Assembly (NCBI GenBank): GCA_963693365.1
Contig: CAVNZM010000007.1
Coordinates: 6,507,962 to 6,571,961 of the forward strand
Direction: 5' to 3'
DNA length: 64,000 nt
Source of the DNA: Amoebidium appalachense
Taxonomy: Eukaryota > Protista > Ichthyosporea
Below are positions 8,253 through 51,585 of the stretch, in pieces. A program made the translations under genes and the position numbers. Under the pieces are notes generated by a model, which did not search any database, was not told where the DNA came from, and saw nothing but the letters and a program-made list of their open reading frames with translations. Position 1 is the stretch's first letter. Every line of letters begins with the position of its first letter.

Positions 8253-8292
<40 letters not shown>

Positions 8293-19000: not shown

Positions 19001-21099
19001 CTATAAATTGTTTTATGCCAAGGGTGAAACAATGGTTGACTGTGATGCTCTCTCTCGTGCTGCTTATATTTTGTTTGAAGAAGAGAAGGAGGGGGAGGGG
19101 GGGGCTAGTGAGAGACGGGGGGGGGGAGGGGGGGAAGGGGGGGGAGAGTGAGCAGAAAGGAATAGATGCTGTGTCTGTGGATGTGTCTTCTTGGGTTCCG
19201 GGGTTGCTTGCTTATAAGTGTAGGAGAGGGGGGAGGTATTTGTCAGTGTCTGAGGTCGGGACCGAGTCTCATGGCTCGGCCCCTGCCTTAGCACCTACGG
19301 CTTTGATCTTAGCTCAGGAGGAAGATGTGTTGATTGGTCTGGTTAAGAATTATTTAAAGGGGCCGGTTGATTCGATTAAATTTAAAAATAAAAGGCAGAT
19401 GATTAAGGTAGCTAAGTTAGCAAAAATGTGTCAGGTAGAGCAGGATTTAGTTTATCATTGTTCTGGGCCAGACGGACACCGAGTTTGGGTCCCGACGGCA
19501 CTTGTGCCTGAGGTTTTGCATATGGTGCATGAGCATCCCATGGCTGGTCATTTAGGTGTAAATAGGACGTTGCTTCGTGTTAATCGTTCGTATTTTTGGC
19601 CGGGTATGAGTAGGGAGGTGAGGGATTATGTGTTGTCATGCATGCATTGTCAGGAAAGGAATGAGAGTCCCCACTCTCGTTCCCGCCCGTCGTTTATTAG
19701 GGATTTTAATGTTCGTATGTTTGAAAGGGTAGCAGTGGATGTGGTCGGTCCTTTTAATTCTACGGTTGAGGGTAACACTGTTCTTGTTACCGTCACCGAT
19801 GTGGCCACTCGTTGGGTTGAAGTTTTTCCTCTCCCCACTGCTAATGCCGTTTTGTTTGCTCGTATTTTTGTGGATGAAATTTGTCTTAGGTTTGGTTGTC
19901 CTCGTGTTTTGTTAACGGATAGGAGTCGTGTGTTTTTAAATCAGTTGGTGTCGGAGGTGTGTAAAATTTTAAGGGTAGCTCATATCACTACGTCTGCATA
20001 TCACCCTCAAGCAAATGCCATCTCTGAACGTGTGCATGCAGTGTTTCAGAAGTCCTTTGGCAAAATGGTGGATGTGGAGGCTAATGATTGGGATCATATG
20101 TCTAGGTTTATTGCTCATTCTTATAATTCTACCCCTCATGCTGTGACTGGTTTTTCTCCGTTTTATTTGGTCTATGGGCAGGAGGCTATTAGTTTGTTAG
20201 ATACGGCACTTTTGCCGATGGGGGGGGCTGACCGACTAACTTATCCCCACTGGACTGAGTTCCGGGAGCAGCTACTAACCCGGGCCCGGGCTGCACGTGA
20301 TGCAGCTCTGGCCCGTACACAGCAGGCACAGGCACGTACAGACGTGTCCACACGTCCGTTACGTGAATTTGCCGAGGGCACTTTAGTTTTAATTAGGGAT
20401 CATACTAGGAAAAAGAGATATAAGCAGGAGCAGGAAGGTAAGGGTGAAGGTGAAGGTCTTCGTAAGTATGGTAAGAAATGGTTGCCTCTTTTCATTGGCC
20501 CGTATAAAATAGTGGCTAGGTTAGGTCCGACGGAATATAAGGTGCAGAGGTTAGATAATGAGAGTGATGTTAGATTTTATAATGTAGATGATATAAAGGA
20601 ATATTATGATAGGGCCCTTAGGGTTAAACGGCCGGAGGGCCGTCGAGTGTTAGATGCATTCACCCCCGACTATGACGGGTCGGTGGATGTATCGGAGGCT
20701 GCAGTAGATAAAATTATGGATAAAAAGGTTATCGAAGGTAAGGAAGGTAAGGTAAATTATTATTTAATTCGTTTTGAGGGAGGTTATCAGGAAGATCAGT
20801 GGTTGCCTGAGTTTCATTTGGATTGCCCGTTTTCTATTCGTGCTTATGAGGCTAGATTAGTGCAGAGGGAGTTGCCTAGTGCTCCCTCTCGGCCAAAGAG
20901 AGTTATTCCTCAGTTTAATCGTGGTGTGAAAAAGTCGGTGGGGGAGGGGGCCGGGGGGGGAGTGATGCAAATACACGTAGACACACGGGGGGAGGGGGAG
21001 GGGGGGGAGGAGACCGAGGAGGAGTGTGAACGTAGTCGTAGGAATTTAATTTATTATCATAGGTGTCTCCGTAGGTATCAAGCTTATGGTGTAGATTAA
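16044..21099 (+). pseudogene. pol: G1 pol (PR, RT, RNase H, IN, chromodomain) with frameshifts and stops
   Basis: PR LLDGGAQ; RT SPWRSPVLLVKK/DYRALN/YLDD; RH CDAS; IN HxxxxxxH...CxxC, DVVGP, TD, YHPQAN; chromo VDKIMDKK...YYLIRF...DQWLPE. Confidence 0.92.
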
Positions 21100-21949
21100 T
21101 TTATTATTTTTCTTCGTAATTTATTTATTTAATTTTTTTTTTGGGAGACTGATTAGTCTATGTCTTTTTAGGGGGTGTTAGATGTAATGTGACTGAGGTG
21201 GGACTCAGCTTTTCCGGGGGCCGGGGGGGGAGTTGACATATACTAATCCGTCTCAGCAGATTAGCCTAAGTCTACGATCAAGATCGGGGGGGGGGGGGGG
21301 GGGGGGTGGCCCGGGTCCACAGATCATCAAGATCAAGTCCGGGGCCTCAAGATAGCTGAACAGCTGCGTGCATCTTGCCTCTGCCGGCGCAGGGCATTGG
21401 ACCACGTCAGCCGGGACAGCCGTCCAATAGAATTCTAATTAGTGTGTAGGATAGATCGTAGGAGGACTTAGGAATGTGATTGTTCGGGCAGAAGCCCTTT
21501 TGTAAGGATTGGCAAGGTTTGATAGTATATGTTGCCAAACGTATTTATATATGTAGATGTAGAGGAAAGGGGGGAGGGAGGGGGGGGGAGGATAGTATGA
21601 AATGTATATTTAGACTCTGCGGTGCCACTAGGGGGAGGGTGAGGGGTGAGACTTGGATAAATATATTAGTTGAGTAGATCGACTTAGCTCGTGCAGGCGC
21701 ACGATAAAAGTAGATCGGAATGTTAATGGAATGTGGCATCGTAGGGGGCCAGGTGATGATGATCTTGTAGGGCACGGCCTTGATGGCCTCAGTCGTAACT
21801 TAGACTCAATCCGTACGGATCTAAGTTTGCCCGTCGGAGCCTGGTCTTAATAAACTTTACCGTTTTTCTGTACACGTTCGTTCCTTTTCGTGTGTGTACA
21901 CTTAGTAGAGTGCCGCGTCTCTAGTACACATACATTAGGATACGACAGA

Positions 21950-22891: not shown

Positions 22892-22974
22892 CAGATAAGT
22901 ACGGTTTGGGTGGAGATGTGTGTTTGTATGTGTGTGTGTGTGTGTGTGTCACGGTGTGTGTGGGAGGGGGGGGG

Positions 22975-25900
22975 TGTCATCTTCACTTGATTCTCAGCAA
23001 GACTTAGAAGTTGAGTTTTGTATTTATTTATTAGTTGTTGTAGTTTGTTTCCTTTTCCTTTCTTCATTTCTTTCTTTCCTTTCCGTTTCCATGTACACGA
23101 CATCTTAGATCTGTGTACGTATCGACATACTTAGCTCGCGCACACGTATTATAATTGTCGTTTGTGTCAAAATCTATATATGTCCTCCAATCATATCTCG
23201 TTTGTATTTTCCCAAATATAGTAACTTACATTCCTTTCTCATTCCTTTCCCACGACGTAGCATTGTGCTATGTTCTTCAACTATTAGGAATTATTATAAT
23301 TATATTTAGACGTGTTATGATAAGAACATGTATAAATGTATGTTATGAATTAACAGTTATATAAGTGGTTTCATTTTGTTAAATGTTTCCGTGCCTTTAT
23401 TAGAAGTTTCTTTCATTAGAGGATTGAGTTTTATATTCTATGTGTCGACAGACATTTTAATCGATATATTTTACACTCATAGTTTTCGTCCTTTTGATTG
23501 GTTTATCGTTTCACATTCCCAAGTATAAAAGGGATTTCATCTTGAAATAAATCATAAGCAGTCGTATTCATTTCCTATGGTTCCAGAAATCGTCCCTCCT
23601 CTCCGGTTGTGTTTTTCCCGTGTGTCTCTGTGTTGTGTATATCATAACACCCATCTGTGCTCTCTGCTTCTCCGTTTACCCACACAAAACAACAGGTTTA
23701 CGGCCCCTTTGCACGCTAACACACAATCTCTCTACAACCGCGAAATCTCTAAGTCTTACTGCTTCAATCATGACTGACAAACCGTCGTATATCAACCTTC
23801 CAATATGGAATCCGTCCGAGAAACGAGACGAGAAACGTCTTAATTATTTCGAGTGGGAGCCACTCATTCACCGGTTCATTAGAACAACCATTGCCGAGAA
23901 ATTCGTTGACGCTATCAAGAGGCCACAGTGGGTTGACGGCGCTGAAGCCAACCAGTGGCTAGGCTACACCACCAAGGACTCCTACAAGAAAGCTTCCGAC
24001 GTCCTCGACCAGATCCTCAACCAGTCCGTCCACCCGACCGAGCTCTACGACTCCGGCCGGATGCAAGACGGTGTCCACGGTGGTGAAGTCTTCCACAACC
24101 TACGTATGGCGTATGTAGCAGAGAAGGAGGCCCGAGGCACCCAGATTCAAGTCACCTTCGAGGAGCTTGAACTACGAGACTACCCCAACGTCACAGCATA
24201 CCTCACCCGTCTCCAACGTCTGGCCACGACACTTGCCTGCCTCGACGAGCCCGTCCAGCACAAGGATGTCGTACGTAAGTTCTTCCTCCACCTCAGGAAG
24301 AACACGGCCCTGGTCTGCTCCGACATTGAACGTCTCTGCTCCGACTACTGGATGAACAACAAGGCCTACCCGTCCTTCAACATGCTCATCAGTGACATCC
24401 GAGGAGCTGAAATCCGTGCCGGCCTCATCGATGCAGGCACTGGTGCAACCGTCAACAACCGTCCCCTCCGTGCACTCCAGAGCAGAGTGCTTCCTCCCGG
24501 TGACCTCCGTAACCGTATTCCTCGACGTGAGCATACACCTCACCGATCCCCGTCCCGTTCCCGTGATCCTCGTCCTTCCTCCAAGTCACCCGGCCCCCGT
24601 TCAACTTCCCCTTACCACCGTGGTAACAGGGACAACCGTAACCGACAGCACAACACCAAGAAGGTGGAGTGTTCCTACTGCCATGAGCCCCACCACATCA
24701 CAGCATGCCCGGAGCCTGGCTGTACAGTTGCTCGTCGTGCCAAGCAGGAGAAAGGCGACAAGAGTGTGAAATTTGCACTCATCTCCTCCACCGGCACACC
24801 TGACAGTAACGACCCCGTCTGGGACAGTGCTTGTAATGCACACATCTGCCCCATCAAGGAGTATTTCTCCTCCCTTACCCCGTGTCCTCCCACCCCCATT
24901 CACGACCTCGGCACCGTCAATGCCAAACAACGTGGCATCATCAACATGACACTGCACTACAACGGCCACCCAACACCGTGCAGCATCAATGCTTACTACG
25001 TACCCGAGGCACCGTCTTTCCTCGTGTCTACCTCCATGGCCTCAGCTGCCGGCCTCCTAGGTCATTGTGACGATACAGACAACCACCCGTCGTTCCTCTA
25101 CAGCCGTAATGGTGACATCATTTCAGATCTCACCCCCCTCGACGGTCTCTAGTACTACATCACTGACTATGTGATTGAGACTCCTAAACACCCGGGGGTC
25201 CAAGCCTACACAGCAAGGACTCAACCACCCGCCGACCTCACCCTTTGGCACAACCGTCTCGGCCACCGTGCCCTCTCCACCGTCACCAGGATGGCCAAGG
25301 ATGAGCTTGTCATCGGCATGCCCCCCTCCCTCAAGTCACCCGACAACAGTGACTGCTTCGGCTGCATGTCTGGCAAGACCACCAAGGCCCCCTTTCCCGG
25401 CACCCGTTCCAAATTCACCATTCCCGGTGCTAAGTGGCACCTGGACTTCTTCGAAGCTCCCTGTGCTTCCTACGGAGGCTACAAGGTTGCTCTGGTGTGT
25501 GTTTGTGATGCCACCGGTTACACCACCGTGTTCCCCCTCTACAACCGTGGTGAAACCCTCAGCCACATTCAGTCTCTCGTTGAAACCATCGAACGTCAGA
25601 CACCTGAGATCGTCACCCATCTTCGGTTTGACTCCGGCTCTGAGTTCACCTCCAAGGACACCGAGGCCTACTGCAAGCAGAAAGGCATCATCATGGAGTT
25701 TGCCCCCGTCGACACACCACAACACAACGGTGTTGTTGAACGGAAGATGAGAGAACTGCAAGAGACAGTCCGTTGCTTCCTCCATGCCGACAAGGACCAA
25801 CCTCTCTCTCCCAAGTTGTGGGTTGCTGCTCTCAAGCATGCAGGCTACATCATCAACGTCACACCGTCATCTGCTGCCAACGGCAACACTCCCTTCGAGG

Positions 25901-28157
25901 CCTTCCACGGCTTCAAACCCGACGTCTCCCAGCTCCACGTGTTCGGCTCCCCTGCCTATGTGCATGTTCCCCGGTCAAAGAGGAACAAGCTGGCATCAAC
26001 CGTCAGAGTCGGCACCTGCGTCGGCTGGGACCTACCCTCCAAGGCACACAAGATCCTCGACCATGCCAGCAACCAAATCAAGATCTGCCGTGATGTGATC
26101 TTCGACGAGTCGAAATTCACGAGCAGCACCAATCAGGTCTCCGTTCCCCCCAAACCCGATCTGCCGACATTGGACCCCCCCTCCGACGACGACGATGAAA
26201 CTCCGTCTGTGGTCATCTCCCAACCGTCCTGGCACAACCAACCAGCCCCGGTTGAACCCGTGCCTCCCCCGAGCCCCCCCCCCCACTGGCCAACAACCCT
26301 TGCTGCCGGCCCCCCCCATTGCTGTGCATCAACCCGGCTACATGACTCCGGTTCGTCCTGGGTCCCCCACCTTCCACTCGGCCTCGAGCAGCCCTGTGGA
26401 CACCGATGCCCCCCTCACCACCGGTCCTATTCCTGGCTTCCATGCCCCTATCCCGGCCTCCACCACCTACCCGGCCACCACCCCCCTCAAGGACCCCCCC
26501 AAGCCCAACCTTCGTCGGTCTACACGTCTCACCAAGACTCCAACGGCACTGGTCAGCATCATAGCACCGACCATCAACATTGACCAGCTCCCCAAGGGCA
26601 TTCAAAAGCTTTGCAACGGTCCCAACGGTGATGCCGTCATAGCTGCCCTCACCTCCGAGTACCAAGCCTTCATCACCAAGGATGTCTTCACCATTGTTGA
26701 TCCCCCCCCTGGTGCCAACATCATCAAGTTCAAGTGCATTGTGACTGAGAAAGTCCTCAACTCAGCCGGTGACACCAAGATCAAAGCTCGTGGTGTTGCA
26801 AAGGGCTTCACTCAAGTCTACGGCCCGCTGGTGTTGACTACGGTGACACCTCTTCCCCCGTGGTGATGTCCTCCTCCGTCCGCGCCCTCCTTGCCATCGG
26901 TGTGGACGGCAACCATGAGATTCATCAACTCGACGTCTCAACTGCCTTCCTCAACAGTCCTCTTCAAGAAGACATCTACATTGAGCCACCACCTGGCTTC
27001 ATCACCCCCGGCAACGAACACAAGGTCTGGAAACTTAAGAAGGCACTCTACGGCCTCAAGCAAGCATCACTGGCCTGGTATGAGTACTTCGACAAGGTCC
27101 TCCTTGCCCACGGTCTTGAACGTCTCCGTTCAGATCCATGTGTCTACATCAAGACCTTCCCCAACGGTGACATCATCCTCACTGGCAACTATGTGGACGA
27201 CGTCATCATCATCTGCACGGCCAACTCTTCCCACACCAAGGATCTAGTAGACCACATCATGAAGTCAGCAGGCTGTCTGCAAGGTTGACCTTCCCGACAT
27301 CTTCCTTGGCACCCAGCTCATCCACACCCCCGGTCACCTCAAGCTGCTTCAACAATCCTACATCAACGACATCGTCAGAGACTTCAACCTCAACGATGCC
27401 CACCCCAAGGCTACTCCCATTCCCGTCGGCACCGTCATCACCATCAACGAAAACGACTCACCACCCATCAAGGTTCCCTACCGTGAACTACTCGGCCGTC
27501 TTTTGTGGGTTGCTCGTTGTTCCCGGCCCGACATCTCCTTTGCCATCGGCTACCTCGGTAGATTCAGTGCCAACCCCACCAAACTTGCATGGGAATGTCT
27601 ACTCCGTGTAGTTCGGTACCTCATTGGCACTTCCAACCTCGGCCTTCACTACGACAAGTCTGCATCCGACGACAACATCCCCTTGCTGGAGTGTAATTCT
27701 GATGCTGACTTTACCAACTGCCCCAACACCCGTCGTTCAACCACCGGATACGTCATCTTCTTTAAGGGCATACCCATCACATGGTATTCGAGGCTGCAGT
27801 CCATCACGGCAACATCCACCACTGGCACCGAGGCTGAACTTCTAGCCATCAATGCTGCTGTTCAAAACGTCATCTGGCACCGTGATCTCCTCCGTGAACT
27901 CGGCTACCCGATGACCGACCCCACCCCCGTCTACTGTGACAACCAGTCCACCATTGCCCTCCTGCACACCAACAGCATCAAGCACCGGACCAAACACATT
28001 GCAGTCCGGTACCACAACACGAAGGACTACATCAAGAGTGGGGATGTGGTCGTCACCTACGTGTCCAGCAAAGACAACGTGGCTGACATCTTCACCAAGC
28101 CCCTGCCCGGGCCCTCCCACGAGCAGCACCGTGATTCACTCAGTCTTCATGACTGAG

Positions 28158-28203
<46 letters not shown>

Positions 28204-29444
28204 TTTCATCTACAGTGGTCTTCAAGTAGGTTGGGGCACTGGCCAGTGGTCTACACATCACCGTGTAGAGACGCCTCCCAACGAAAGTCTACTGCTGTCT
28301 TCATCGATCTTCAGTGTGTGCATCTTCAGTGGGGATTTCTTCTCCACCATCCGTCGTTTATTTATATACCATCATATATATAATGTATAAATCATTAGCC
28401 ACCAACACGTCACACATACACTAGTTGTTTCTCCTATATATATATTTATATATCGTCATTGGCTACCGTCATCTTCCGAGTCTTCAGAGGCAACCGTCGT
28501 TGTGTGCTTCTTCCGTTTTGGTTTTCTTCCCCGGCTTGCACCTCCAAGTCTTCTCCAATTGTCTTCTCGAGTGGGGAAACTTGACTGTGACTTCACGGCA
28601 CCTGCTTCTTCATGTGTGAGAGTCTTTACATCAACAGTCACATCAACAAACTTCACGAGAACCCAACTTCCAACCCTTGAGTGGGGATGTCATCTTCACT
28701 TGATTCTCAGCAAGACTTAGAAGTTGAGTTTTGTATTTATTTATTAGTTGTTGTAGTTTGTTTCCTTTTCCTTTCTTCATTTCTTTCTTTCCTTTCCGTT
28801 TCCATGTACACGACATCTTAGATCTGTGTACGTATCGACATACTTAGCTCGCGCACACGTATTGTCGTTTGTGTCAAAATCTATATATGTCCTCCAATCA
28901 TATCTCGTTTGTATTTTCCCAAATATAGTAACTTACATTCCTTTCTCATTCCTTTCCCACGACGTAGCATTGTGCTATGTTCTTCAACTATTAGGAATAA
29001 TTATATTTAGACGTGTTATGATAAGAACATGTATAAATGTATGTTATGAATTAATAGTTATATAAGTGGTTTCATTTTGTTAAATGTTTCCGTGCTTTTA
29101 TTAGAAGTTTCTTTCATTAGAGGATTGAGTTTTATATTCTATGTGTCGACAGGCATTTTAATCGATATATTTTACACTCATAGTTTTCGTCCTTTTGATT
29201 GGTTTATCGTTTCACATTCCCAAGTATAAAAGGGATTTCATCTTGAAATAAATCATAAGCAGTCGTATTCATTTCCTATGGTTCCAGAAATCGTCCCTCC
29301 TCTCCGGTTGTGTTTTTCCCGTGTGTCTCTGTGTTGTGTATATCATAACACCCATCTGTGCTCTCTGCTTCTCCGTTTACCCACACAAAACAACAGGTTA
29401 TGGGCCCAGCACGCTTCCACTGCGCTTACCCACACAAAACAACA
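22975..29444 (+). mobile_element. Ty1/Copia LTR retrotransposon (half-tRNAiMet-primed type)
   Basis: LTRs 22975-23694 and 28688-29395 (TGTCATC...CAACA), PPT TGAGTGGGGA, GGGGG on both flanks, and an extra 49 nt at the 3' end (see findings). Confidence 0.95.
23770..28156 (+). pseudogene. Copia gag-PR-IN-RT-RH polyprotein, disrupted
   Basis: CSYCHEPHHITAC, WDSACNAH, LWHNRLGH, FDSGSEF, PQHNGVVER, HQLDVSTAFLN, LYGLKQA, YVDD, SDAD, RTKHI, ADIFTKPL. In-frame stop at 25150-25152 plus several frameshifts. Confidence 0.93.
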
Positions 29445-30533: not shown

Positions 30534-30637
30534 TGTCATCTACACATGGATAACGGCAAGAACTTAGCTGAAGTTGAGTAATACATATGTTTATTAGTTT
30601 GTTGTTGTTCGTTTCCTTTTCCCTTTTCCTTTCTTTC
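30534..30637 (+). mobile_element. Truncated 5' fragment of a diverged LTR of the same Copia family
   Basis: TGTCATC...GCAAGAACTTAG..GAAGTTGAGT...TTTATTAGTT...GTTTCCTTTTCC aligns with the start of the LTR at 22975. Confidence 0.65.
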
Positions 30638-33600
30638 AGACAAATACCACAGTGACATTCAGCCAATCACAACACTCCCTCCCCCACAGGCTACACGCAC
30701 TCCACACCATTGGCTACCGCCACCTCAGACACCCCTACCGCGGCACTACAACACGTACACACCTTTACTCACAATACATATAAGCATACACACACGCGAG
30801 CAGGCAACATGGGTCTCGCCAAGCACACAGCAAGAAGCAATACAACATTTAACATGGAGAGTACGCAGAGGCATGGGGCATGCACGCGCGCACCAAACAA
30901 TCAGCCGCCGCTGCATCAGATTCTCCCCATATCCGTCACTGAATAACTTATTGAATATCCTCATACTCCACTTAGACCCCGGCATCACTATGCAAGAAAA
31001 CCCCCGAAATTCACTCACCAAAACACAAAACATATAAGCAAACTGATACGAATCAGCTCAGCACATGGCAACTCCCCCCTCGCACAGAAAATAACTGAGT
31101 TCCACCTCAGTAAAAACTACCGAAAAACAAAACAGAGTTATGTGCTGAGCGACTACAACTACCGCTACCCATGCAGGAAGCAACATTTAACATATAACAT
31201 AAAACATATACATGCATCCACGCACCACCCCAGCATGGTTAGTACCCAACCCAACCCCAAAACAAGGATAATTATGAACCGCCACTGACGTTGCCCTGTA
31301 GATGCACCTCTGCATGTGCTGTTGTCTGTGTTTGCTTGTGCTCTTGCGAAGCTGCTTTTGGTTGTGCAACTGAAGATCGAAAATCCCGCGGGTGGCTTAT
31401 TATCTTTGTTTTCTTTCCAAATGAGTAGAAGGCCACAACCTGCACCCAAAACCCCATGCCCCTGGCACAATGTTATATCGAGTGGAACATAGCAACAGAC
31501 ATAAGACCAGACGCCATCCATACAACCACAGTCAGCATGCCCCATCCACAAAGAATTCCTAACACAACCAAACATGCCGTGACGAACACCTCCAGACTCA
31601 TGTGACGTACACTGCCTCCAGACTCTCTTGCTGGCCATTCCTCTACCCGACAAACTTTGAAGACTCCTACTACGGAGGTCCCGGTGGTTTGGGAATGCCT
31701 CCGCCCCAACCGTGCCCTACCCAGCGGTGTGTCTAAGGCCTACTGCTGCACTGGGCACCACAACACTACTCAACAACACTACGGGCAGCCACTCCAAAGG
31801 GCCTCAACACCAGGCCCAGGGCAACCACTCCAAGGGGCCTCAGCACCAGGCCCTTTGACGACGGGGGTTCACAACAGTGGGGGCCTGGCAGCCACTGCCA
31901 TGACTACACCTCGACCCCCCCCCCGCCCAGCCCCCTCGTCAGAGGGCCGAGCTCCCAGACAGCAGCAGGACTTTCTATTCCACAGTGACTGACCCTAACC
32001 ACACACGTCGCCAACACAGGACTCATACACACGTCGAAAACGCCAGGCACCAGTAAGAAACTCGCCGAAAAATAACACCACACAACTCCCATACAAACAA
32101 CAACCCAAGAGACGGCCTACCCCATAATAAAACCTTCATACCAGCAACACGGTCACCGACATCCCTGCCCCCCACGACGGGGCTGTTTACACCACGCGTT
32201 GCCCCCGCTCCTTGCAGTTGTCGCAGGTGCCTGGGAAAGAGCCTGGCGCCGGCTCTAACTGTCCCGCCCAAAGACGCCAGCCTGGCCCATCTGTTATCCC
32301 GTTGTGGCCGTGGCTGGTAGGGCTGGTAGCGCCGTGGGGAGGGTGACCGCCGCCGGTCCCCTCTGAGGCCTCTGCTGGGCAAACGGCCCTGAGCTTGCTA
32401 AGCCACCTAGGGAGGTCAAGGTCCTTAGCGAGGACTAGTAAGTCCCCTGTGATACTAGTCCTACTGCTCATCTTGCCTATGCCAACTGTTGCTAGCTGTA
32501 GGTCTGTGTGTGCGTATGTTTCTTCTACTACCTCTAACCGTCGAAAAAGTCCTAAGTTAAAACCACTCATAACCGGTAGTCTTGAGAGGAAAAAAAAACT
32601 AGGGGTGAAAGCAACAGCCCAGAAGGACTAACAGTGCGTGTGCCCCCTCCCTGCAAAAAACTGCAGAGAAAGGGGGTGTAGCTTGTCGTGTTACGCCCTC
32701 GCGTGTATACGAACTACTATAACTAACTGCACGCTTAAAGGGGCTTGAAACTGTGTATACGTATAAACTTTTCTTTGAGTTGGGTGGGAAGCGAGCCCAA
32801 CGTGTTCTCAGAAGAACTTCGAAAAGCCCGCGACCCCGCGAGACACTTCACAGTGTTGTAATACGTAGTATTTACATATGGTAAGATCTTCTCAGTTTGT
32901 GTTATGTTTCAGTTCATATGCTTAGTGTAAAAGCTACACTCCTATTACGTAAAGTGTAGCATCGATCTCCGATATGCTTGTATACTTGTAATCGTGTTGT
33001 ATCGGCTTTAATCGTGTGTTGTAATATCGATTAGAATATTTATATGTGTGTACACGGAACCACCCACTCAGGGAGAGACGTGTACATGTTCGTGTGTACA
33101 TAAATATCTCTGGTTATAGTTATGCTATTACTATCTTGTTTGTTGATCTGTGCTCTCTTTTCCTTCCTCTTTCTCCTTCCTTATTTTCTTTTCTTTCTCT
33201 CTTTGTCTTCATGTGTATAATCGTATTTCTTTTCTACTAATATATGTTAGGTAGATTTGTGTTACTTAATACGTGTTCATTGGACGGTAACACACTTAGG
33301 CTACACTTAGAATAGCATGTGTGTTTAGACTTCATTAATTTACTTTAGTTTTCATGTGTTGCCGGGCTTTAACCAATCATCAAGGTTATGTGTGATATGT
33401 CTGAGTCTTTGCAGTATGTCATAGGTTAGAACTTCCTTGATGATGACACGAGTTGACCTTAACTAGTGTCTGTGTCCTATCGTGTGCGTCTCCGCGTACC
33501 GGATCTCTCTGAAAGCAATTGGTTCTTAGTGATTGGTTTCTATTAGAGATAGATCTGATTTCCGACTGGTCGGAAATCATGTATGGATTGGACTTAGAGG

Positions 33601-34307
33601 AATTTCAGGTATTTATTCGAAGATCAGAATAAATTCAGTTCAGTCGTGTCTAAACATTGATGTCTGTTGTGTACACTGCTCCGATCGTTCCGTATTTTGT
33701 TGTTGTGTGTGTCTGTGGTGTTTTCACACTGCACCACTGTGTCTCTGCTTCCATCCCAAATACTTATACAATTTAACACACAGACATGCGGCCCACTGGC
33801 CAGACAAATACCACAGTGACATTCAGCCAATCACAACACTCCCTCCCCCACAGGCTACACGCACTCCACACCATTGGCTACCGCCACCTCAGACACCCCT
33901 ACCGCACTACAACACGTACACACCCATTACAACAGGCTACACGCACTCCACACCATTGGCTACCGCCACCTCACTGGCAGACACTCCTACCGCACTACAA
34001 CACGTACACACCTTTACTCACAATACATATAAGCATACACACACGCGAGCAGGCAACATGGGTCTCGCCAAGCACACAGCAAGAAGCAATACAACATCTA
34101 ACATGGAGAGTACGCAGAGGCAATGGGGCATGCACGCGCGCACCAAACAATCAGCCGCCGCTGCATCAGATTCTCCCCATACCACTGATTAATCTTCTCA
34201 TACTCCACTTAGACCCCGGCATCACTATGCAAGAAAACCCCCGAAATGCACTCACCAAAACACAAAATATAGAAGCAAACTAATACGAATCAGCTCAGCA
34301 CATGACA
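30638..34307 (-). mobile_element. Non-autonomous Gypsy-like LTR element (G2) with only a degenerate gag
   Basis: 5' LTR 34307-32684 (TGTCATG...ACGACA, interrupted by a solo LTR); truncated 3' LTR 31070-30638; PPT AGGGGGGAGT at 31080-31071; gag remnant 32570-32187 with CDNCKERG knuckle remnant. Confidence 0.75.
32854..33778. mobile_element. Solo LTR (Copia-like, TGTT...AACA)
   Basis: Flanked by CACAG at 32849-32853 and 33779-33783. AT-rich, and its 3' end resembles the Copia LTR U5 (TGTGTCTCTGCTTC). Confidence 0.8.
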
Positions 34308-34319
34308 CACTGGTAAACT

Positions 34320-34950
34320 TTAGGACTGTCTAATGGGATTCGGTTTACGCTATATGAAGGAAAAATTTCCAAACCCGTCGACGACGATGTAGACCGTCGG
34401 CTGAGTGGTGTACGACACCTTTAGGGATGACCGACAGTATTTGGACAGCCCAATAACAATAACCCTGTAACCACCCTTATGGATGGGTTTACAGCAACCA
34501 CAACTTTCGTGGTACTCCTAACCCCATACATTGGATGTACACTCTATGTCGTGCACACCTCCGGATCGACATCATAAGATGGTCTTGCTGCACCCCCTCG
34601 GAAGACTGTCTTAAGACGTCGGAAACAACCGTCGAATGGATGGGTTTACAATATCCATATGAACGTCCTCGACAACCATTACTGTTGTCGTAAACCCCCC
34701 TAGAGTACGACATCGTAACATGCTCTTCAAGTTGCGACACCCAACGTAAGACTGTCAATAGAAGTCTGAAAACCCGCCTAATGGATTGGTTTACAGTATC
34801 CATTTGAAGGTCCACGACACACCGTGTATGTCGTAAACACCTGCAAATTACGACATCGTTAGATGATATTATGATGCCCCATCGTAAGACTGTCATTAGA
34901 CGTCTGAAACCCTGCCTGATGGATGGGTTTACCGTATCGATAGGAAGGTC
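34320..34950. repeat. Degenerate ~140-155 bp tandem repeat (about 4 units)
   Basis: Recurring ATGGATGGGTTTAC, CGTAAGACTGTC and TACGACATCGT motifs at roughly regular spacing. Confidence 0.7.
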
Positions 34951-36093
34951 ATGGCAGGCCATGTTGAACTCACATAAATTAGCACTAGTAGTAAAAACCA
35001 AGCTGTGTACATTTTAATTGAGCATCTGGAGGGGCTGCTGTATAGCTATATGATACCACTATCATTTGACAGATATGTGTAATATAGATGTTAATAATTT
35101 TCCTGTAAAATTGTAAATAATAACTGGTGGCACGGCCTTCTGGATACATATAACAATGGATGTTTTATGGGGCCCCGTTTCGTGGGAATGCTGGCATACT
35201 TGAAAGAGAATACATAAGAGAACGAATCGGATGCTGATGGGGTACAACAACTTGCAGAGTTTGTGGGTGCCTGGAGCGGCACTGAGGGGATTATAGTAGG
35301 GATAATTATATTGCGGAAAGCTGAACAGTGTAGGGTACTATAGACGGCGCTGAACATGCCTGTATGAAGTCTGTACATATGCGTGTATGTGGTATATTAT
35401 ACCGGATATCTAGTATGGATGTACACAGGTTGAGATATACGCACACGTGTACATGTAAGTATACCACTGTGTTTGATCTTAGGTAGGCCAGTATGCATGT
35501 CCCCCCCAGTCTTGTGCGCATGAGCATGGAGTTAAACATATGTGCACGTGCAGCTTGCAGGATTATTCATGGGAAAACAGATATAATAGTCACATGGGAC
35601 CGACACGTAGACTAAGTAGAGGAACCATGAGCGTTAAGTTATAGTTTTATCATGGGAAAATATGCAAGTAGCCGTGAGGTATGACTGTGGAATGCATCGT
35701 TAGGCAAGTACTGTCACCCGATTGGCTCACTAAGTTTATTGGAACCGTGATAGCCATGGGACAGAACCGTGAACCGTATGTGATTGGCTCTCGTAGCCAA
35801 AAGGACATACCGATGCGCATGTCTGAGCCGCTGTGCGAGCTCCAATATAAGGGCATGTCGGGGGCTTCAGAGCTCACTCAGTGTGCTCGGCTTACTAGGT
35901 GTAAGTAGGACTAGCACGTAACTTAGCAAAGCGTGGTCTAGTCAACCCCGTTCATTTACAAATATATTGTTTGTCACAGACACACGATCATTTTATACAA
36001 CAGCTGAGCTACACCCCCTGCAGTGCTAGTTCTTGCGCTGCAAGTGTGCTCGTTTCAAAGCAAATACTATGTTTTTAGTTGTTTGGGTTCTAA

Positions 36094-37965
36094 CATGTCT
36101 GGCCACCTTGGTGACGACAATGCCGGCCCTAGCGGCCTGCATGGGGGCGAAGCAAGAAACGCCGACCTTATTTTCCTTCAAGAACTCGGGTATAATGTTC
36201 CCCTTTCTCCCCCCGGCGCTTCACCGTGGTACCCTCCTGGAGCAGACATTCCGTTGCTCGACCGTGTTTACTTCCGTACACACGACCTGCAACACGGCAA
36301 TCAATACTGCTTCTCTTTTCGTTCAGGGGAAACCGACTACGGCCAATCATTTGACCCCGAAGACCTGCCACCTGAAGACAATCGACATTCATCAGTCGAC
36401 CTTCTCCACGGGCTGGAACTGTCGAGGTCAACGTGAACGCAAGCAGAGGCACCAGACGCCCTGGTACGCGCCCTAACGGAGTATGCAAATTTGCACAACA
36501 AAACGGGCGTGAGCCTGGCAGCTTGGTGCTGGTGCGTTCTTGGGTGTCTCCTTCTGTTCATGCTGCTGGCATTGTTGGTATCGAAGTTTGCCAGCTGTAC
36601 AGCGCGCACGGCAGGCACTCACCATGCTCCACCAACAACTGCTCGCCCTCGCGAATGTATTCACTTCCAGGCAAAACTACGCGTGCCTTTCAGGGCAGTC
36701 TTCCCACATAACTAAGTCACATGAAATTATCAATCAGTTAGTGGCTCTTAGTCGTGGTGAGCTCGACCTAGTTGTTACTTATTATGGTAATTGGGGCCCT
36801 CGAAAATTTCATCCAAGCATGCTCCCCTCGTGGGTTCGTGCCGGACGGGGCCCCCGTAAGAACTCTGGCCGAGGTGGTAGGGGTGGGCGTGGTGGTGGCC
36901 GGGGGGGGCATAACAACCCCCCTCCTGCTGCCAACGAAAATGGGGATGGTAATGCAGGTGGCGGCGGCCCCCCACCTCCCCCGGACGGTGGTGCTGACGG
37001 TGGTGCCGGTGGTGCTAATGGTGCCGGAGGTGCTAACGGTGCTGGTGGTGCCGGTGGTGGTGGTGGTGATGGCGGTGGCGACGGCGGTGACGGTGGCGAT
37101 GACGGTGACGGTAACGACGGCAACGGTGACGACCGGGAGGGGAAGGAAAAGATTCAACACATCCCCTCAGCAGCAATTCAGTCTCGTCCTATGCTCGAGG
37201 CAGATGCCGATATCGACGAATTCTACAAACAACTCCAACATCATTTAATTTTCTTTTGTATTATGGAGTTGGTGGGCTTAAATCGCACGTTGATGTTTAT
37301 TCGTATGTGCATGGGCCCCGGGGACCCCCGAGATGCTGCCGATAACGTCGACCTTTCCACGTGCACCGGCATGGACGATTTTTGGGCTAAGTTCCTTGAG
37401 AAGTATTTAGACAAGGAACGTAAGGAGGAGCATTTAGACGAGCTGAACAAGCTTCGTTTTATGCACACTCGGGCCTCGATAAAGACATTCCACAAGAAAT
37501 TTAATTGCATCGTCTCCAACACGGGTCTCAAGAACATGCCCGAGGTCGTGCTTCATCATTACCAACGTACCCTCAACGACTACCCGGACCTTTGTTCGGA
37601 GGCCCGGGCTGCCACCACCCTCAAGCAAGCCATGGCCCGTGTCATCCGACGGTATGAAGCTGATGTGGGTGCTCACAATTTAAAATGTAACCGTAATGTG
37701 GGTGGTGTAGATGAGATGGGTGGTGGTAGTGGGGGGCATGGTGGTGGTGGTGGTGGTCACGGGGGTGGCCACGGGGGTAGTGGGGGTAATGTTCAAGTTG
37801 GTGGTAAGGGTAAATCTAATGGGGGGGGGCAAATGGGCTAAGGACGATAAAAAGAAAGATAAGAGGGGGCCCAATTGTTGGGCATGCAAGCAGCCGGGGC
37901 ATCGTTTTAAAGATTGCCCCACCCGAGCTGCCAAGAAGAACAAGGGCAAGCAAAGTGAAAAATAG
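36094..37965 (+). pseudogene. gag: G3 gag (disrupted), Gly-rich with zinc knuckle
   Basis: ORFs 36023, 36540 and 37711; CWACKQPGHRFKDC knuckle; capsid-like FLEKYL...L.KL.F...SI..F..KF. Confidence 0.8.
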
Positions 37966-40900
37966 ATAATTGCCGGTGCTAGATGCACGGATACGGCATG
38001 TATTGCACATTGTGACCCAGTGGGTCACGAGAAAGTAATTAAAAATGTGCCTATACCAAGTGCTTCTGCCCCGGCTTCTTCCGATATCCCCCCCTCCGAG
38101 CCCCTTTCCCCCGACCCCCGACCCCCCACCCCCCCACACCTATCCCCCCCCACAAAGAAACTTCGAACACTCGATAGAATAAGAAAAGTGTTCGATATAA
38201 GTGCCATATGCAATGCAGGAAGACGTATCTATGTTAATGTTACGTTGAGTAATGAAAAATACTTTGCATTGTTTGACACTGGGGCATCATTCACGGTGGT
38301 TAGTGAAGCTGTTTTTTCCCGACACACGCAGGAGTTTGCTTTGCAACCCTCTGATGTGATTGTTACTTCCGTACGGAAAAACGATAAAGCTCTAGCTGTG
38401 AGTGGTGAAGTGATGCTCCCGTTATGCCTCGGTTCTCAAACATTCATGTGGCCTTGCTTAGTAATTAAAAATATTAAGCATGACATGATTATTGGGAACG
38501 ATTTTGCCAACAAACACATTGCCACCACTAATCATCAAGCACACTCACTAACACTGGTGTCGGGGATGGTGGTGCCGACGTCATCTTTGCACACCCCCTA
38601 CACAATGTGTCCTGTTACCGTCAAGCACGACACCACCGTCAAATCTGGCTTTGGATGTGTATTACGTGCAACGGTGCAGGTGACTGCTGCTGCTGCTGCT
38701 GCTGGCACCCTCGGTATCTTCGAGCCTACTCGTGAATTTCGAGATAAGTTCCCCCCCACCATCTGTGAAATTAGTGTGGATAAATCTATTGCTGTTGTGT
38801 GCGAAAATGGTGTGGGTCCGGATTTGAACGTGTTCGGTACCATCGGTCATTTCGTTCCTACGAGCCGACATGAGTACATACACGAACTGAGTGTTTTGCA
38901 AGCCGAACCCCACCCCAGTCGTACACAAACCGTCGTTGGTGCAATAGCGCAGTGCATCAGGTGGGCAACGGGGGGTGGAGAAGGTTGCCTACCCAATTCA
39001 CCTCCGGCCGTGCCACCGGGCCGGGTGCCTACCGATAACATGTGTGGGCACGAAGGGCATGTGAGTGGGACACGAGGCGGTCCGATACACTCACCGATCG
39101 ACCAATCAATGTGTGCCGTTGATCATGAAACCCCCCCCCCCCCCCCACGAAAAATTTCGGAAATTTCGGGTGGGGGTGCACACGATGCCGGCCAGGCTCC
39201 CCACGGTTTTGATTGGAATAGGGTGCCTCAGATTATGCTTCCGGATGTCAAGAAACTATTAGAAGCACACTCTTGTTGCTTCATCACTACGGACCCCGAC
39301 GAATTTCCTCAGATAAAAGGATTCACCATGCACATAGACACGGGAGATAACCCACCGATTCGATTAAAACAGTGGAGGTTGGAACAAGTGAAAGAGCAGG
39401 CTGCAAAGGAGATCGTAGAGGATATGTGTCGTAGAGGGCAGATGGAACAAGCACACAGTCAGTATAATTCACCCACCTTCGTAATACGAAAACCAAACGG
39501 AAAATACCGTCTGCTGACTGATTTTCGTGCTCTTAACAAGCAAATTCGAAAATCTGCCTGGCCCATGCCCAACTTGCAACAACAAATAGAGAAGTTGGCT
39601 GGGTATAAGTATTTCTGTAAAGCTGATATGTCGGGTGCCTTTTACCAAATACTGCTAGACGCTGAGTCACGTGAAAAAACAGGATTTTCTGTGGCTGGTG
39701 TGCAGTATCGTTATTGTGTGGCACCACAGGGGCTAAGTACTTCCCCGTCCCAGCTAGCATCTATCATGACACAGATTTTGGCCCCTCTGGCCGATGACGT
39801 GGTGGTATATGCCGATGATTTAGCTGTGGGTGCACACACCGAAAAAGAATTAATACAGAAGCTTGACCGACTTTTCACCCGTCTCGGTGAATATGGAGTT
39901 AAGCTCGATGGGGCAAAGACATACATTGGGCTCACGGAAATACCGTTTTTGGGTTGGATTGTAGGTGTGAATGGCATTCGGCCCGACCCGAAAAAGGTAC
40001 AGGCAGTGAAAGATTGGCCGGTACCAAACACACTACACCAACTCCGGGGTTTTCTGGGTATTACTTCCTATCTCCGCCGTCACATTTTAAATTATGCAGA
40101 GCGAGCCCGACCCATGAATGCCGAGTGTTACGGAGAAAAACACCGACGTTTAAAATGGACGGACGAATTAGATCGCTCGTTTAAAGATTTAAAATCGACG
40201 TTATCGGAGGAAGTGCTTGCCCTGCCCGATCTTTCCCCCACGGGGGGTCAGTTTCTTATTCGTTGTGATGCTAGTCGGTTCTCGGAAGGGGCTTGCCTGT
40301 ATCAAAAACAAAAAGATGGCAAGTTCCGCACAGTGGCATATGCCTCCCGGATGTTTCAACCTACCGAACGTAGGTGGAGCAACATCGAACGAGAAACGCA
40401 TGCAATCTATTGGGCACTGAAAGAGTTTAGGGTGTACGTGTATGGTCGAGTGAATACTATTGTGGAAAGTGACCATAAGCCCTGTCTTTCTCTTAAAGGT
40501 GTCAAACGGATAGCAAACGAACGGATCATGCAACGGTGGGCTTTGGAAATGCAGGAGTATGATTTCGATCTATACTACCGACCTGGCCCTACCATGCGCA
40601 ATGCTGATGGGTTAAGCCGTATAGGATATATTCTGCATGAGAACGAAAACATACCACTGGAAAGGTGGGATGTGAAAAAGGAATTACAAGAGGTTCTCAC
40701 AGCAGATTTATCCGAGCTTAGCTCGAAACCAGCCGAAGTGTTTGTTGATTGGGGTGATGCACTCGAATTCTACACATTTTCGATCCAGACCGCTTGAAAT
40801 GTGCACAAATTTCTGCACTCAGTCAAGCCGGCCTGCCCTCCCTTTCTGCACTCGGTGGTGCCGGCTATCAGAAGGAAGCAATTATGATGGCACAGGGGGG

Positions 40901-42575
40901 GACAAAATGTGTAAGGATATAATCACGTGGCTCCGGTGGCTTGCCTCCCTCGATGCCGAGGCCAAACGGGAATGGCAGGCAGGGGGGGAACGAGCTGCAC
41001 ACGGTCTTAATCTTGACTATTTCGGATACAAAAAGGTTAAGAAAATAGCACAAATGTGTGTGATAGAGGATGGCAAGTAGAGTTGTTGAACGTTGCATTT
41101 GGGAAAGCGCGGGGGGGGGGGGGGGGGGGGAGGGGGGGGGGTACATACCAATTGGTGCTACGGAGTAGCCGATAGCCGGCCGTGACGATTTCATTTGTCC
41201 GTTTGTTCTCAAACCACATGTGCACAATCGTGTTTTTGGGCAACTTGGTCCCAAAATTGGTCCGACGGGGGGGCTCATACTGGCATTGAACGAACTTACG
41301 AAAGATTATACAATTACTATTGGCCACGCATACACAAAGATATCACTGCTTATGTGAATGCCTGCACACAGTGCCAAGGCCGTAACGATAACCCACACTT
41401 GAGAAGTAGGCCATTTGAACAGAGACACGAAAATTTAAAAATGTTCTCTCGTGTTTCTGTTGACCTTATGGGTCCGTTCACAGAAACGAAAAATGGTAAT
41501 ACCCTCATTTGTGTGTTTATGGATATGGCAACGAAGTATTTAATCACTGTGCCCATCCAATCTAAGCATGCCGTTAATGTTGCACATGCACTCATGAATG
41601 TAATTTGCTATATACACGGCCCCCCTCGTACACTCTTGAGTGATCAAGGATCCGAATTTCTCAATGAGCTAATTGTTGAGGTTTGCCGTATAGCAAATAT
41701 TGCACAAGTGAGCACCTCTGCATATCACCCACAAAGCAACAACGGTTCCAATGAACGGTCTCATAGATTTATTAATAATGCACTCTCAAAGTACGTTAAT
41801 TATGAGCACACTAATTGGGACACTCTGTTGCCGGTGGTTACACATGCATACAACACAACAACACACAAAATTTTGCAATGTACACCGTATTATCTTGTGT
41901 ACGGGCAAGAAGCAACACAATTCCCTGACGTTGCGGCCCTTCTTAGCAGTAACCACCCGGCACTCAAGGACCCAGAGTGGAAGGCATACCGGCGAGAGTT
42001 ACTAGCCCGTTTGCCTCTGCTCCGTGCTGTGGTCCAGCAACGCGCCGTACGAGAGCCCCCAGGCCCCTCGGTGGCTCGTGAATTTAAGAAGGGTGCACGG
42101 ATTCGTGTTCGGAATCAAGCCAAAAATATCGGTGCCTGATGTACGGTGGCTTACGGGTTACGAAATCGTCAAAAGGGTCGGCCCGGTCACGTACGAGATC
42201 CAAAGCTTAGCAACTATGAAGAAATCTAAGTGGCACGTGGACGATATTCAGCTTGAATTGAGTGAGCAAGATAGAATTCGGCCTCAAGATCTCTCTCACC
42301 TCCCGGACACGGGCGATAGTCACAATTTCAACAAGGTTCTGCCGGACGAGTGGGTGGTGGAAAAGGTGCTTGACGTAAGAATTCAGAAACGGCGCAAGCA
42401 ATCCACCCCTTACAAGTGGTACCAGATCAAGTGGGCAGGCAAAGATGAATCATTCACCTCTTGGGAGTGTGAGAAAGACTTAGCCTGCCCGGACAAGATC
42501 CGAGAGTTCCACCAACGCAGAGGTGACCTTGCATCGTTCCACGGATACATTGACTCATTGTGTGGAGCATGGTGA
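37966..42575 (+). pseudogene. pol: G3 pol (PR, RT, RH, IN, chromodomain) with frameshifts
   Basis: LFDTGAS, DFRALN, YADD, CDAS, SDHKP, AHTG...CTQC, DLMGP, SDQGSEF, YHPQSN; chromo WVVEKVLDVR...YQIKWAG...SWE. Confidence 0.93.
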
Positions 42576-44287
42576 CGTATGTCGAGGACGACATACTTCT
42601 TTTTACGGTGGGGCGTGTGGTATATTATACTGGATATCTAGTATGGATGTACACAGGTTGAGATATACGCACACGTGTACATGTATATATACCACTGTGT
42701 TTGATCTTAGGTAGGCCAGTATGCATGTCCCCCCCAGTCTTGTGCGCATGAGCATGGAGTTAAACATATGTGCACGTGCAGCTTGCAGGATTATTCATGG
42801 GAAAACAGATATAATAGTCACATGGGACCGACACGTAGTAGAGAAACCATGAGCGTTAAGTTATAGTTTTATCATGGGAAAATATGCAAGTAGCCGTGAG
42901 GTATGACTGTGGAATGCATCGTTAGGCAAGTACTGTCACCCGATTGGCTCACTAAGTTTATTGGAACCGTGATAGCCATGGGACAGAACCGTGAACCGTA
43001 TGTGATTGGCTCTCGTAGCCAAAAGGACATATACCGATGCGCATGTCTGAGCCGCTGTGCGAGCTCCGATATAAGGGCATGTCGGGGGCTTCAGAGCTCA
43101 CTCAGTGTGCTCGGCTTACTAGGTGTAAGTAGGACTAGCACGTAACTTAGCAAAGCGTGGTCTAGTCAACCCCGTTCATTTACAAATATATTGTTTGTCA
43201 CAGACACACGATCATTTTATACAACAGTGTACATGTATTAAAAGTAAATCAAGAGCGGAGCCAAAGAACTTATTTAATAAACAAAAGGTTTTATTTGTGG
43301 AATTTATTGACATAAATATTTTTTCTGGGTAAACACGTAGGATGGGTGTTCGGTATCAACATAACCATGTAGGCTTCATTTCGTGTTTTAGCAGTTCGCG
43401 GTTGGCTTCCCGCACACGGGCACCTATTAGCCAATCAAAACATTAGATTCCACATATCACTAGACCGAGTTTTGATTGGCTCGGATCAGATGTGGCACAT
43501 ATCACTAGATCGATTTTGATTGGCTCAGATCGGTAGGCTTAGGTATATAAGCACGACAGTTTTTAGCAGATCAGTGTAAACATCTGTACACGCCGTACAT
43601 GTTTACTATTACGAATATACTGTACATATCATAGTGATCACGTAGATATTGTGTACATACGATCAGATCAATATCACACGCGACAGCCGCGGGCTGCGGC
43701 TCACGACTGAGCCGCGGCGCCGGCAATATGCAGTGGCCGTGCAGTCAGTATGAACCAATAGAATTCGAGAACCGCTAGGATAGGAATGCAAGTCTCATCC
43801 ACTACGGAGGCGACATCTATAGCTAAACGAACGGAACCAATAAGGAAATCAGACCCAGTTGCATAAACCTAAACGGGCTTAAGTATTGACCAATCATTTG
43901 CCACAAAGTTATCCTTTTAGTTAGCTTCATGTTATTGGTGCACTGTGTGCACATAAAGACGACCGCACTCTTCTGACTGGTCAGAAGTCACGAAGGCATC
44001 AATGCCACCCATCCAGATGATCCGGAACCTGGGGGCTATATAAACAAGCCGTCCCAGTACGGGGGATCACTCTGAACGAGCACATTAAATAGTAACCTGG
44101 CCGCGTGTGCCTTACTACCCGTTCTCTGTCTTTATTCTGATTCAGTTGTTCTCTGCCTTATCCCAACTAGTTCAACTGTTTACAATCAGCAAGCTACAAA
44201 CACATCTTCTGTGTTTAGCACCCACAGCCTTACAGCTATATATTCCTTTTCATTCTCCCTATCTTTCTCTCCCGGACGCCGGTCAGC

Positions 44288-45826
44288 ATGCCGCCGAAAA
44301 AGCGCCAGGCCTCAGCCACCGCCCCTGCCGCGGCACCTAAGCGCCTACCCGCAGCGACCTCCGCCACAGGCTGACCAATGCTCCCGCGGGCCCTGACGCG
44401 CCTCCGGAGGCCCATACCACCACGGACCCTCCGGCTACTTCTCCCAGTCTACTCCTGAAGTCCCTCCTCAGGCCCCGCCGTCCCCCGCCGATGACTTCTC
44501 AAGACGCCGTCCTTGCCGCCCTCACCGCCATCAGCACCCAGATGGCTGGCGTCCTGGCCGCTCTCACCAACCGCGACCCTCCCACGCCCCCCGCCGCACC
44601 CTCCGCACCCGGGGAGCTCCTCGAGGTTTCCCCGGGGCTGCATCTCGGCCCTGACCTGGACCTACCTGCCCTGCCCGCGCCCCCCATTACAGGTGAGAAC
44701 ACTGGCGACATTCAGCCGGGCACACTGCCGCTTCCCCCCGCGGATGTGCTGGCAGATTTGCGCGCAAATCGTTTCGCCGACCTGTATAAGTTCACCCCTG
44801 CAGCCCTCCTGGCCCCATCCAAGAAACTTAAGGTCAGCAGCTGCGCATGGCCGACGACGGCAGCATCGTGGCTTTTCGCAATGACAAGCCCGTTCCCCTG
44901 CGTTCACTCCTCATTTGGATCCAAGCTTGGACCCATTACATTGCCGCCAAGCACCACCTCGACCTCCCCACGGACAAGGACGTACTTTGGACTCAGCACA
45001 TCACTCGCCTCAGCACCCGATACCCGTGGGCCCAGATCCACAACTATGACGTGTATGCCCGTACCGTTGCCCACCAGCAGGGTCGGGCTCCGATCGAGTG
45101 TCCCAACCTGCTCGCCCAACTCCCCAGGATCTCCTCCTGCCACCCACTCTGCTCCGAGTCATCCCGGACGCATGTCAGCGCTGTGGCTTCCCCAACCACC
45201 CCAGCGCGGCCTGCCCCATGTACCCCAAGCCCGGCTGTGGTCTTGACGGCTTCAAGCCGCACACAAGCCCGGCGGGGGCCAAACCCCCAACCGCCCTGGC
45301 CCGCAACCCGGCCCGGCAAAACCGGCCCGACCCGTGGATCTACCCGCGACGCACTGCAGGAATTTCCACATTAACGGTCGGTCCTGTGCTAAGCAGCCCA
45401 GCCCCTTCTCCCACGTGTGCCCGCTCTGCTCTGGCACACCCCCCCGCAAAGACTGCAAGCACAATGCCTAGTCTACTCGCACACACACAGATAGAACATA
45501 GGGGCTAGCCTAGAGCTAGGACACACGGGTACAAGGAAACGGAGCTCGGGAAAACGGGCCAATAGGGCTGAGTACAAATTTTCGCACGCCAACTGCGGCG
45601 CCCGCGCGCGCCAAGAATAAATGTCCCTACACAAAGACGCTATTCTGGCCACTGCACATAATTTTACTCCCCCCCCCATCCCACGAGCCTCCCTCCCCCT
45701 TGCACTCACCTAGCACTCCCTCCCCCCCCCTTCTTCTACCTCTGTGTCCGCCCACACCCCCACGTGCTCGGGCATCCCCTGCACAGGGCCCCGCTGCCCT
45801 CCCTGCAAACCCTCCCTCGGGCCCAG

Positions 45827-45858
<32 letters not shown>

Positions 45859-51512: not shown

Positions 51513-51585
51513 CATCATCACCATCACCATCACCATCACCATCACCACCCCATCACCATCACCTGTGATGCACCCAATGATACAG

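Follow-up and report, generated by a model that had tools for sequence, protein, structure and literature searches.

Two LTR retrotransposons of the ichthyosporean Amoebidium appalachense, here called G2 and G3, carry directly behind their 5' LTRs short sites that begin at the LTR edge and end opposite nucleotide 1 of a tRNA, with tRNA-Ala as the prevailing match. Judging from the sequence, we lean, somewhat beyond an even chance, to the view that the first few nucleotides of a host tRNA-Ala (nt 1-12 in G2, nt 1-16 in G3) serve as the minus-strand primer of these elements. The window that we analyzed, a eukaryotic stretch of 64,000 nt, contains several LTR elements:

13926-21947, plus strand: G1, LTR element of autonomous type
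22970-29407, plus strand: copia element
30637-34307, minus strand: G2, LTR element without pol
35388-43226, plus strand: G3, chromodomain Gypsy element

Around these elements we noted pieces of a bZIP-like, multi-exon host gene (7100-8976, minus strand, by eye), a host exon with an RGS domain (51581-51832, plus strand; Pfam E 2e-5), about three tandem repeats of 141 bp between G2 and G3 (34545-34950), and ORF fragments with a DIRS/Ngaro-type likeness by eye (44341-46347), two pieces of which were scanned and gave no Pfam match. The second LTR of the copia element is adjoined by an intact-looking primer site (29398-29411), which from its motif we take to be of the half-tRNA-iMet type, and the first LTR by a degenerate one (23697-23709). 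These primer sites suggest a tandem arrangement, and suggest that the host supports priming by truncated tRNAs. A fragment 78% like the copia LTR (30534-30637) adjoins the 3' LTR of G2 and truncates it.

G3 is a Ty3/Gypsy LTR retrotransposon with a chromodomain. It has a TG...CA LTR pair, a 5-bp target duplication and a polypurine tract (PPT), and its domains follow the order protease, reverse transcriptase (RT), RNase H, integrase, with the chromodomain (Chromo E 1.3e-9) at the C-terminus. The two LTRs are identical at 604 of 609 aligned bases, and by this measure the element is young.

35388-36002, plus strand: G3 5' LTR, 615 bp, one of an LTR pair with target duplication GTGTA
36003-36018, plus strand: 16-mer GCTGAGCTACACCCCC at the primer binding site (PBS) position, complement of nt 1-16 of tRNA(-Ala)
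36513-42575, plus strand: gag-pol in several ORF pieces, with protease, RT, RNase H, integrase and chromodomain
42616-43226, plus strand: G3 3' LTR

Because the LTR pair is nearly identical and flanked by GTGTA, the boundary of G3 is firm, and the 16-mer begins at the first base after the 5' LTR with no spacer. Its last 12 nt (36007-36018) read AGCTACACCCCC. The same 12-mer is found at 32683-32672 on the minus strand, immediately 3' of ...ACACGACA, and thus the identity between the two elements that the first-pass annotation had pointed out is borne out. With up to one mismatch allowed, these are the only two occurrences in the 64-kb window, where 0.46 matches are expected by chance and two or more occur in 9 of 100 shuffles. 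Two matches in 64 kb are weak evidence when taken alone; it is the position of the 12-mer that carries the weight.

That position has to be established for G2, a non-autonomous LTR element with LTRs, a motif at the PBS position and a PPT (31080-31071, minus strand), without pol.

30637-31070, minus strand: G2 3' LTR, truncated, stopping at 30637
31071-32683, minus strand: G2 internal region, 1.6 kb, without pol
32672-32683, minus strand: 12-mer at the PBS position, complement of nt 1-12 of tRNA(-Ala)
32684-32848, minus strand: 3' part of the G2 5' LTR, 165 bp, ending ...ACGACA at 32684
32854-33778, likely plus strand: solo LTR nested in the G2 5' LTR, 925 bp, TG...CA
33779-34307, minus strand: 5' part of the G2 5' LTR, 529 bp, 91-98% identical to the 3' LTR remnant

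The internal region gave no Pfam match but includes a short relic ORF (32627-32187) that is Gag-like and holds half a zinc knuckle. The 5' LTR, about 694 bp in length, is split by the unrelated solo LTR, whose 5-bp target duplication lies at 32849-32853 and 33779-33783. We place the solo LTR on the plus strand as the likely orientation because contigs of other copies have a purine-rich, PPT-like run before it. Across 32250-33350 the read depth climbs about tenfold above 32850, with loose ends at 32854 in at least 14, 11, 15 and 2 contigs of the individual runs, and 32854 as a candidate end of the G2 LTR was resolved as the edge of this nested solo LTR. Two other readings were also rejected: that G2 runs along the plus strand and the motif is its PPT, since a PPT identical to that of G1 precedes 31070 on the minus strand, which also carries the Gag-like relic; and that the motif is an antisense Pol III A-box, since the box is broken in G2 (by eye).

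Since the 3' LTR stops at 30637, the end of the G2 LTR is unreadable from the window, and the boundary was taken from contigs of public runs aligned to it (6 distinct runs used of 22). In four of four runs, contigs on 32590-32850 leave the reference before 32684 (at least 2 contigs in run X1, 4 in X2, 3 in X4 and 1 in X8), and past 32684 their pooled agreement is 0.50-0.57, as for dissimilar flanks; one further X1 contig breaks at 32683. Thus, with at least 10 contigs diverging into unrelated flanks at 32684, the G2 LTR ends there and the 12-mer adjoins it directly, as had been claimed. The contigs diverge at 32684 and not at 32677, the alternative LTR end that would have moved the motif away from the PBS position.

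The 12-nt form also extends beyond this copy. Among the differences listed for contigs over 32590-32850, no variant falls in 32672-32683; one X8 contig spans 32590-32690 without any difference, another with a variant LTR end continues into the first four PBS bases, and an X13 contig has at least 7 differences in 32689-32702 with none in the 12-mer among the differences listed. Several G2 LTR variants retain the junction with the 12-mer, and the 12-nt form is a feature of the family, not the result of damage to a single copy, except that an X3 minority (depth 425 of 2480) has a C run one base shorter. Conservation does not single out the 12-mer, because the 80 nt downstream are equally invariant and the leader (32590-32690) as a whole varies as little as the 12-mer in the aligned contigs; moreover, the source sample may be among the best-matching runs, and these runs do not count as independent evidence of the sequence as such. 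The 12-nt length would fit a loss of 4 nt in the ancestor of the G2 family as well as a different cut site.

We searched 2 of the 64 parts of a metagenome collection with an 18-mer, the 16-nt G3 site plus the final CA of the LTR. The 18-mer, which includes the 12-mer, occurred at 120 loci, and 117 of these lie at a tRNA start (114 exactly, 3 within 1 nt), in agreement with the complementarity to tRNA nt 1-12 noted before. These 117 comprise 108 Ala, 7 Asp, 1 Trp and 1 Lys tRNAs, while the remaining three loci read like tRNAs cut by contig ends. The matches are not host tRNAs, and many sit in bacterial-type Ile-Ala pairs. Human tRNA-Ala, -Cys and -Val isodecoders are reported to begin GGGGGTGTAGCTCAGT (PMC5318995), which pairs with all 16 nt of the G3 site with one terminal G-U. 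The priming tRNA would begin GGGGGUGUAGCU, that is, it would be an Ala (or other) tRNA starting GGGGGUGUAGCUCAG(C/U). By a rough estimate that assumes 50 tRNA starts and 4 offsets, and is conditional on the host having such a tRNA, a match at the LTR edge has a chance probability of 1e-5 for 12 nt and 4e-8 for 16 nt.

The window itself contains a tandem pair of tRNA-like genes called Ser(GGA) (12159-12230 and 12530-12602, minus strand). Despite this call, the variable arm is short and the anticodon arm unusual in both, and they are possibly pseudogenes or a tRNA-derived repeat; they start differently from the expected primer and have only a D-arm part in common with the site. Among viral contigs, 21 matches to a G2 junction 15-mer had no tRNA call and no RT or Gag within 1.5 kb, and 5 matches to the G3 18-mer lay inside long ORFs without an RT or Gag match; we treated these matches as chance. 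A search of viral contigs with the G3 protein found no related locus, and a search with the alignment found 3 distant loci (24-25% identity).

Neither site resembles the usual kinds of PBS. No TGG start lies within a few nt of the LTR in G2 or G3, where a PBS for a tRNA 3' end would have one, and unlike copia-type half-tRNA sites, the matches start at tRNA nt 1 and the domains are those of Gypsy. The 3' end of a primer must pair at the LTR edge, and thus the primer would be tRNA nt 1-16 in G3 and nt 1-12 in G2. Integrase trims two bases in some Gypsy elements; if this is the case here, the primer lengths would be 14 and 10.

Each site is followed directly by a predicted hairpin:

32646-32671, minus strand: predicted hairpin directly after the G2 site, -13.1 kcal/mol, with 0 of 300 shuffles as stable
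36019-36042, plus strand: predicted hairpin directly after the G3 site, -13.9 kcal/mol, with 3 of 300 shuffles as stable

Both predicted hairpins hold the palindrome CUGCAG, and in G2 an alternative fold of the CTGCAG-containing hairpin extends over the C run. The first-pass annotation had remarked on a word repeated downstream of the two sites; a word is indeed present in both, but the common one is CTGCAGT, and G3 reads CCTGCAGT. CTGCAGT recurs after both sites because it forms a stem arm of the predicted hairpins. After the LTR of G1, no significant fold was found (75 of 300 shuffles as stable).

Apart from the site, G2 and G3 have little in common. Their LTRs gave no blastn-short match at E<=0.05, as expected from the earlier remark that they show no similarity, although they do have two short words, TGTGATTGGCT and CGCATGTCTG, in the same order, which are probably promoter motifs. 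Their internal regions have nothing in common beyond the site (a 13-nt match only). G1 and G2, on the other hand, have LTRs that both start TG-CAT and end ACGACA, similar PPTs, and a 17-nt word preceding the PPT (E 0.31), and the G2 relic ORF has a weak likeness to the end of the G1 Gag that is not significant (E 2.4). Thus, outside the site G2 looks closer to G1 than to G3, each of these hints being weak alone.

The RTs of G1 and G3 are 40% identical. In an RT tree (built with FastTree from 264 sequences, none of them a Tf1 reference, and rooted at the midpoint), G1 and G3 fall within a 13-member clade of unnamed proteins (support 0.96), outside the clade that holds plant- and alga-labelled matches; 5 of 8 scanned members from outside the window have a Chromo match (E<=0.01). 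The closest RT relatives (41-45% identity) are unnamed or uninformatively named. Since G2 resembles G1, and the G1 and G3 RTs are only 40% identical, the common site likely spans a deep split. G1, a relative of G3 of the chromodomain type and the autonomous-type element nearest to G2, has no such motif after its LTR, and therefore either the trait is not clade-wide or the G1 family has switched. The sequence behind the G1 LTR (14645-14660) is ACTAGTGTTAGACAC, which has no TGG and, by eye, no tRNA match, and no self-complement above shuffles was found in it.

The main rival explanation, which we consider unlikely but serious, is Tf1-like self-priming, in which the G3 transcript would start near 35881, its first 11 nt would be freed by RNase H, and the tRNA likeness would be a relic. 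In Tf1, the transcript's initial 11 bases are described as pairing with the PBS, with RNase H cutting between bases 11 and 12 to give an 11-nt self-primer (PMC7175516, PMC4600332). G3 has a candidate for such a segment:

35881-35891, plus strand: segment of the G3 LTR that may act as a self-primer, with predicted in-register pairing to PBS nt 1-12

This segment lies 35 nt after a TATA box (TATAAG, 35846), is the same in both G3 LTRs, and forms a predicted duplex of 11 bp with one bulge and one G-U (-17.7 kcal/mol) that none of 40 shuffled LTRs equaled. With 5 of the 7 trial transcript starts (35875-35882), the minimum-energy fold pairs 35881/35882-35891 with 36003-36014, in precisely the register that self-priming requires; a start at 35885 retains 7 bp, and one at 35870 gives another fold. 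The G3 LTR also contains, between the TATA box and R (35858-35891), two degenerate sequences that overlap each other and resemble the tRNA 5' sequence. The bulge and the wobble nonetheless stand against self-priming, as Tf1 is said to need perfect complementarity (PMC5445492), and a perfect complement of the PBS is absent from the LTRs of both G2 and G3, where the longest Watson-Crick runs (6 nt in the G3 LTR, and 7 and 4 nt in the two parts of the G2 LTR) do not exceed shuffles. The tRNA, whose perfect duplex with the G3 site is predicted at -34.5 kcal/mol, fits at each of the six misses of the self-duplex (one bulge, one wobble and four unpaired C), and the bulged base is common to G2. Moreover, G2 has no significant equivalent of the self-pairing (29 of 40 shuffles as good for the 5' LTR part and 4 of 40 for the 3' part, with the parts scanned separately), self-priming gives no reason for families with unalignable LTRs to keep one 12-mer ending at tRNA nt 1, and G1 and G3 do not group with the plant- and alga-labelled clade in the RT tree, which lacks Tf1. 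The earlier preference for an external primer over self-priming thus holds insofar as the tRNA fits both sites perfectly, but has to accommodate the 11-bp self-pairing in G3.

Two further explanations seem to us less probable again. We think it rather improbable that the sites bind the tRNA 5' end or its fragments for RNA dimerization, packaging or regulation while another 3' end primes; the palindromic CUGCAG hairpin 3' of both sites would suit this role, and Ty1 and Ty3 have auxiliary boxes that pair with tRNA arms, but priming must occur at the LTR edge, where both sites begin and where we found neither a TGG nor another candidate. More improbable still is a non-functional relic or look-alike, either a tRNA fragment that was picked up a single time, e.g. 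when an element inserted into a tRNA gene, and then reached G2 through recombination, or a pyrimidine tract that terminates in CAG, in the manner of a splice acceptor. G2 is non-autonomous and G1-like outside the site, G1 itself is without the motif, and pyrimidines and CAG do follow both sites; yet priming of the young G3 must have taken place at this position, the junction is preserved in several G2 LTR variants, the two internal regions share nothing besides the 13-nt match, and a splice acceptor leaves the 16-nt tRNA match unexplained. Against priming by the tRNA 5' end itself, G2 as a non-autonomous element could have captured its site by recombination, and the C run of G2 can be concealed by the predicted hairpin. 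The proposal of priming by the tRNA 5' end rests on two families, G2 and G3.

If a tRNA 5' piece does prime G2 and G3, we envisage that the 5' strand of the tRNA (the 5' strands of the acceptor and the D-stem) would anneal to the site, beside the downstream hairpin, and that a 3' end would then arise at the junction of the duplex with the LTR edge. The simplest agent would be the RNase H of the element, acting on the RNA duplex in the way that Tf1 cuts its own transcript. Cutting at the end of the duplex would be the simplest explanation for two primer lengths; a D-loop fragment already present in the host could account for 16 nt, but would fit 12 nt poorly. Plus-strand synthesis would then copy the whole short primer, such that the site would stay a perfect tRNA complement while the LTRs diverge. 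The imperfect pairing of R with the PBS in G3 might be a vestige, a back-up or a structural switch. We hold with less confidence, as a tentative extension, the fuller version in which a chromodomain Gypsy clade uses Tf1-type RNase H cleavage in trans on the 5' end of host tRNA-Ala, at a D-arm position that the element sets, and in which the remnant R-PBS pairing of G3 is the evolutionary link between self-priming and tRNA priming.

A plant-wide survey distinguishes three primer types, the whole tRNA, the half tRNA cut at the anticodon, and the self-primer (PMC6317226); its PBS search, as described, compared tRNA 3' ends, and the texts of this and a second paper report half-tRNA priming in Copia lineages only (PMC6317226, PMC10886601). 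The half-tRNA Ty1/copia elements (Drosophila copia, Ty5, plant Osser, Bryco and Bianca, fungal Helenus/Copia) are like G2 and G3 in that a 5' tRNA piece truncated at its 3' end would pair with a PBS without TGG. However, these elements use a tRNA cut in the anticodon arm, and pairing involves just the 3' part of the primer, whereas G2 and G3 are Gypsy elements, with an inferred cut in the D-arm and a site that reaches nt 1. Tf1/Tf2, Tj1 and the self-priming Tf1/sushi group are, like G3, chromodomain Gypsy elements; they have a short site at the LTR edge that pairs with an RNA 5' end, as is predicted for G3, but their site complements their own transcript, whereas the perfect complement of the G2 and G3 sites is a tRNA 5' end and G2 has no self-complement.

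Other elements with unexplained priming and no TGG have a pyrimidine-rich or hairpin sequence beside the 5' LTR, as G2 and G3 do. In dictyostelid Skipper a polypyrimidine stretch replaces the PBS (PMC5006619), and in fungal GalEa a conserved hairpin site starts at the LTR junction with a palindrome (PMC5445492). The descriptions in these two papers mention no tRNA complement, whereas G2 and G3 have one, and the G2 and G3 hairpins follow the site instead of starting with a palindromic 9-mer at the LTR junction. SM-Tcn1 is described as lacking a PBS (PMC2864245), and the Gypsy elements Tca3/Tcd3 of Candida and Tcn2-5 of Cryptococcus are said to prime in a distinct or novel way (PMC4139406, PMC7175516); our comparison with Tca3/Tcd3 and Tcn2-5, based on review descriptions, is the main gap in the case for novelty. 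A 5' tRNA-Asp fragment in Arabidopsis is reported to bind chromatin at a Gypsy PBS, a regulatory claim and not one of priming (PMC11962134), and 3' tRNA fragments are reported to block the PBS (PMC7515703). In the literature that we searched, with most subscription journals, Repbase, GyDB and the supplements on PBS types (PMC6317226, PMC10886601) outside its scope, we came across neither an element for which a tRNA 5' end or a tRNA cut in the D-arm serves as primer, nor anything on primer sites in unicellular holozoans.

The G2/G3 site is real and correctly placed, and it is a credible candidate for a novel form of truncated-tRNA priming, in a clade of chromodomain Gypsy elements about which little is known. 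If this is true, Gypsy elements primed by 12-16 nt of a tRNA 5' end would be an additional primer type, a fourth mode, and would be a mechanistic link between self-priming and tRNA priming. 5' tRNA fragments would take part directly in the replication of retroelements, and a testable primer candidate would be at hand for the many elements listed under 'no PBS found'.
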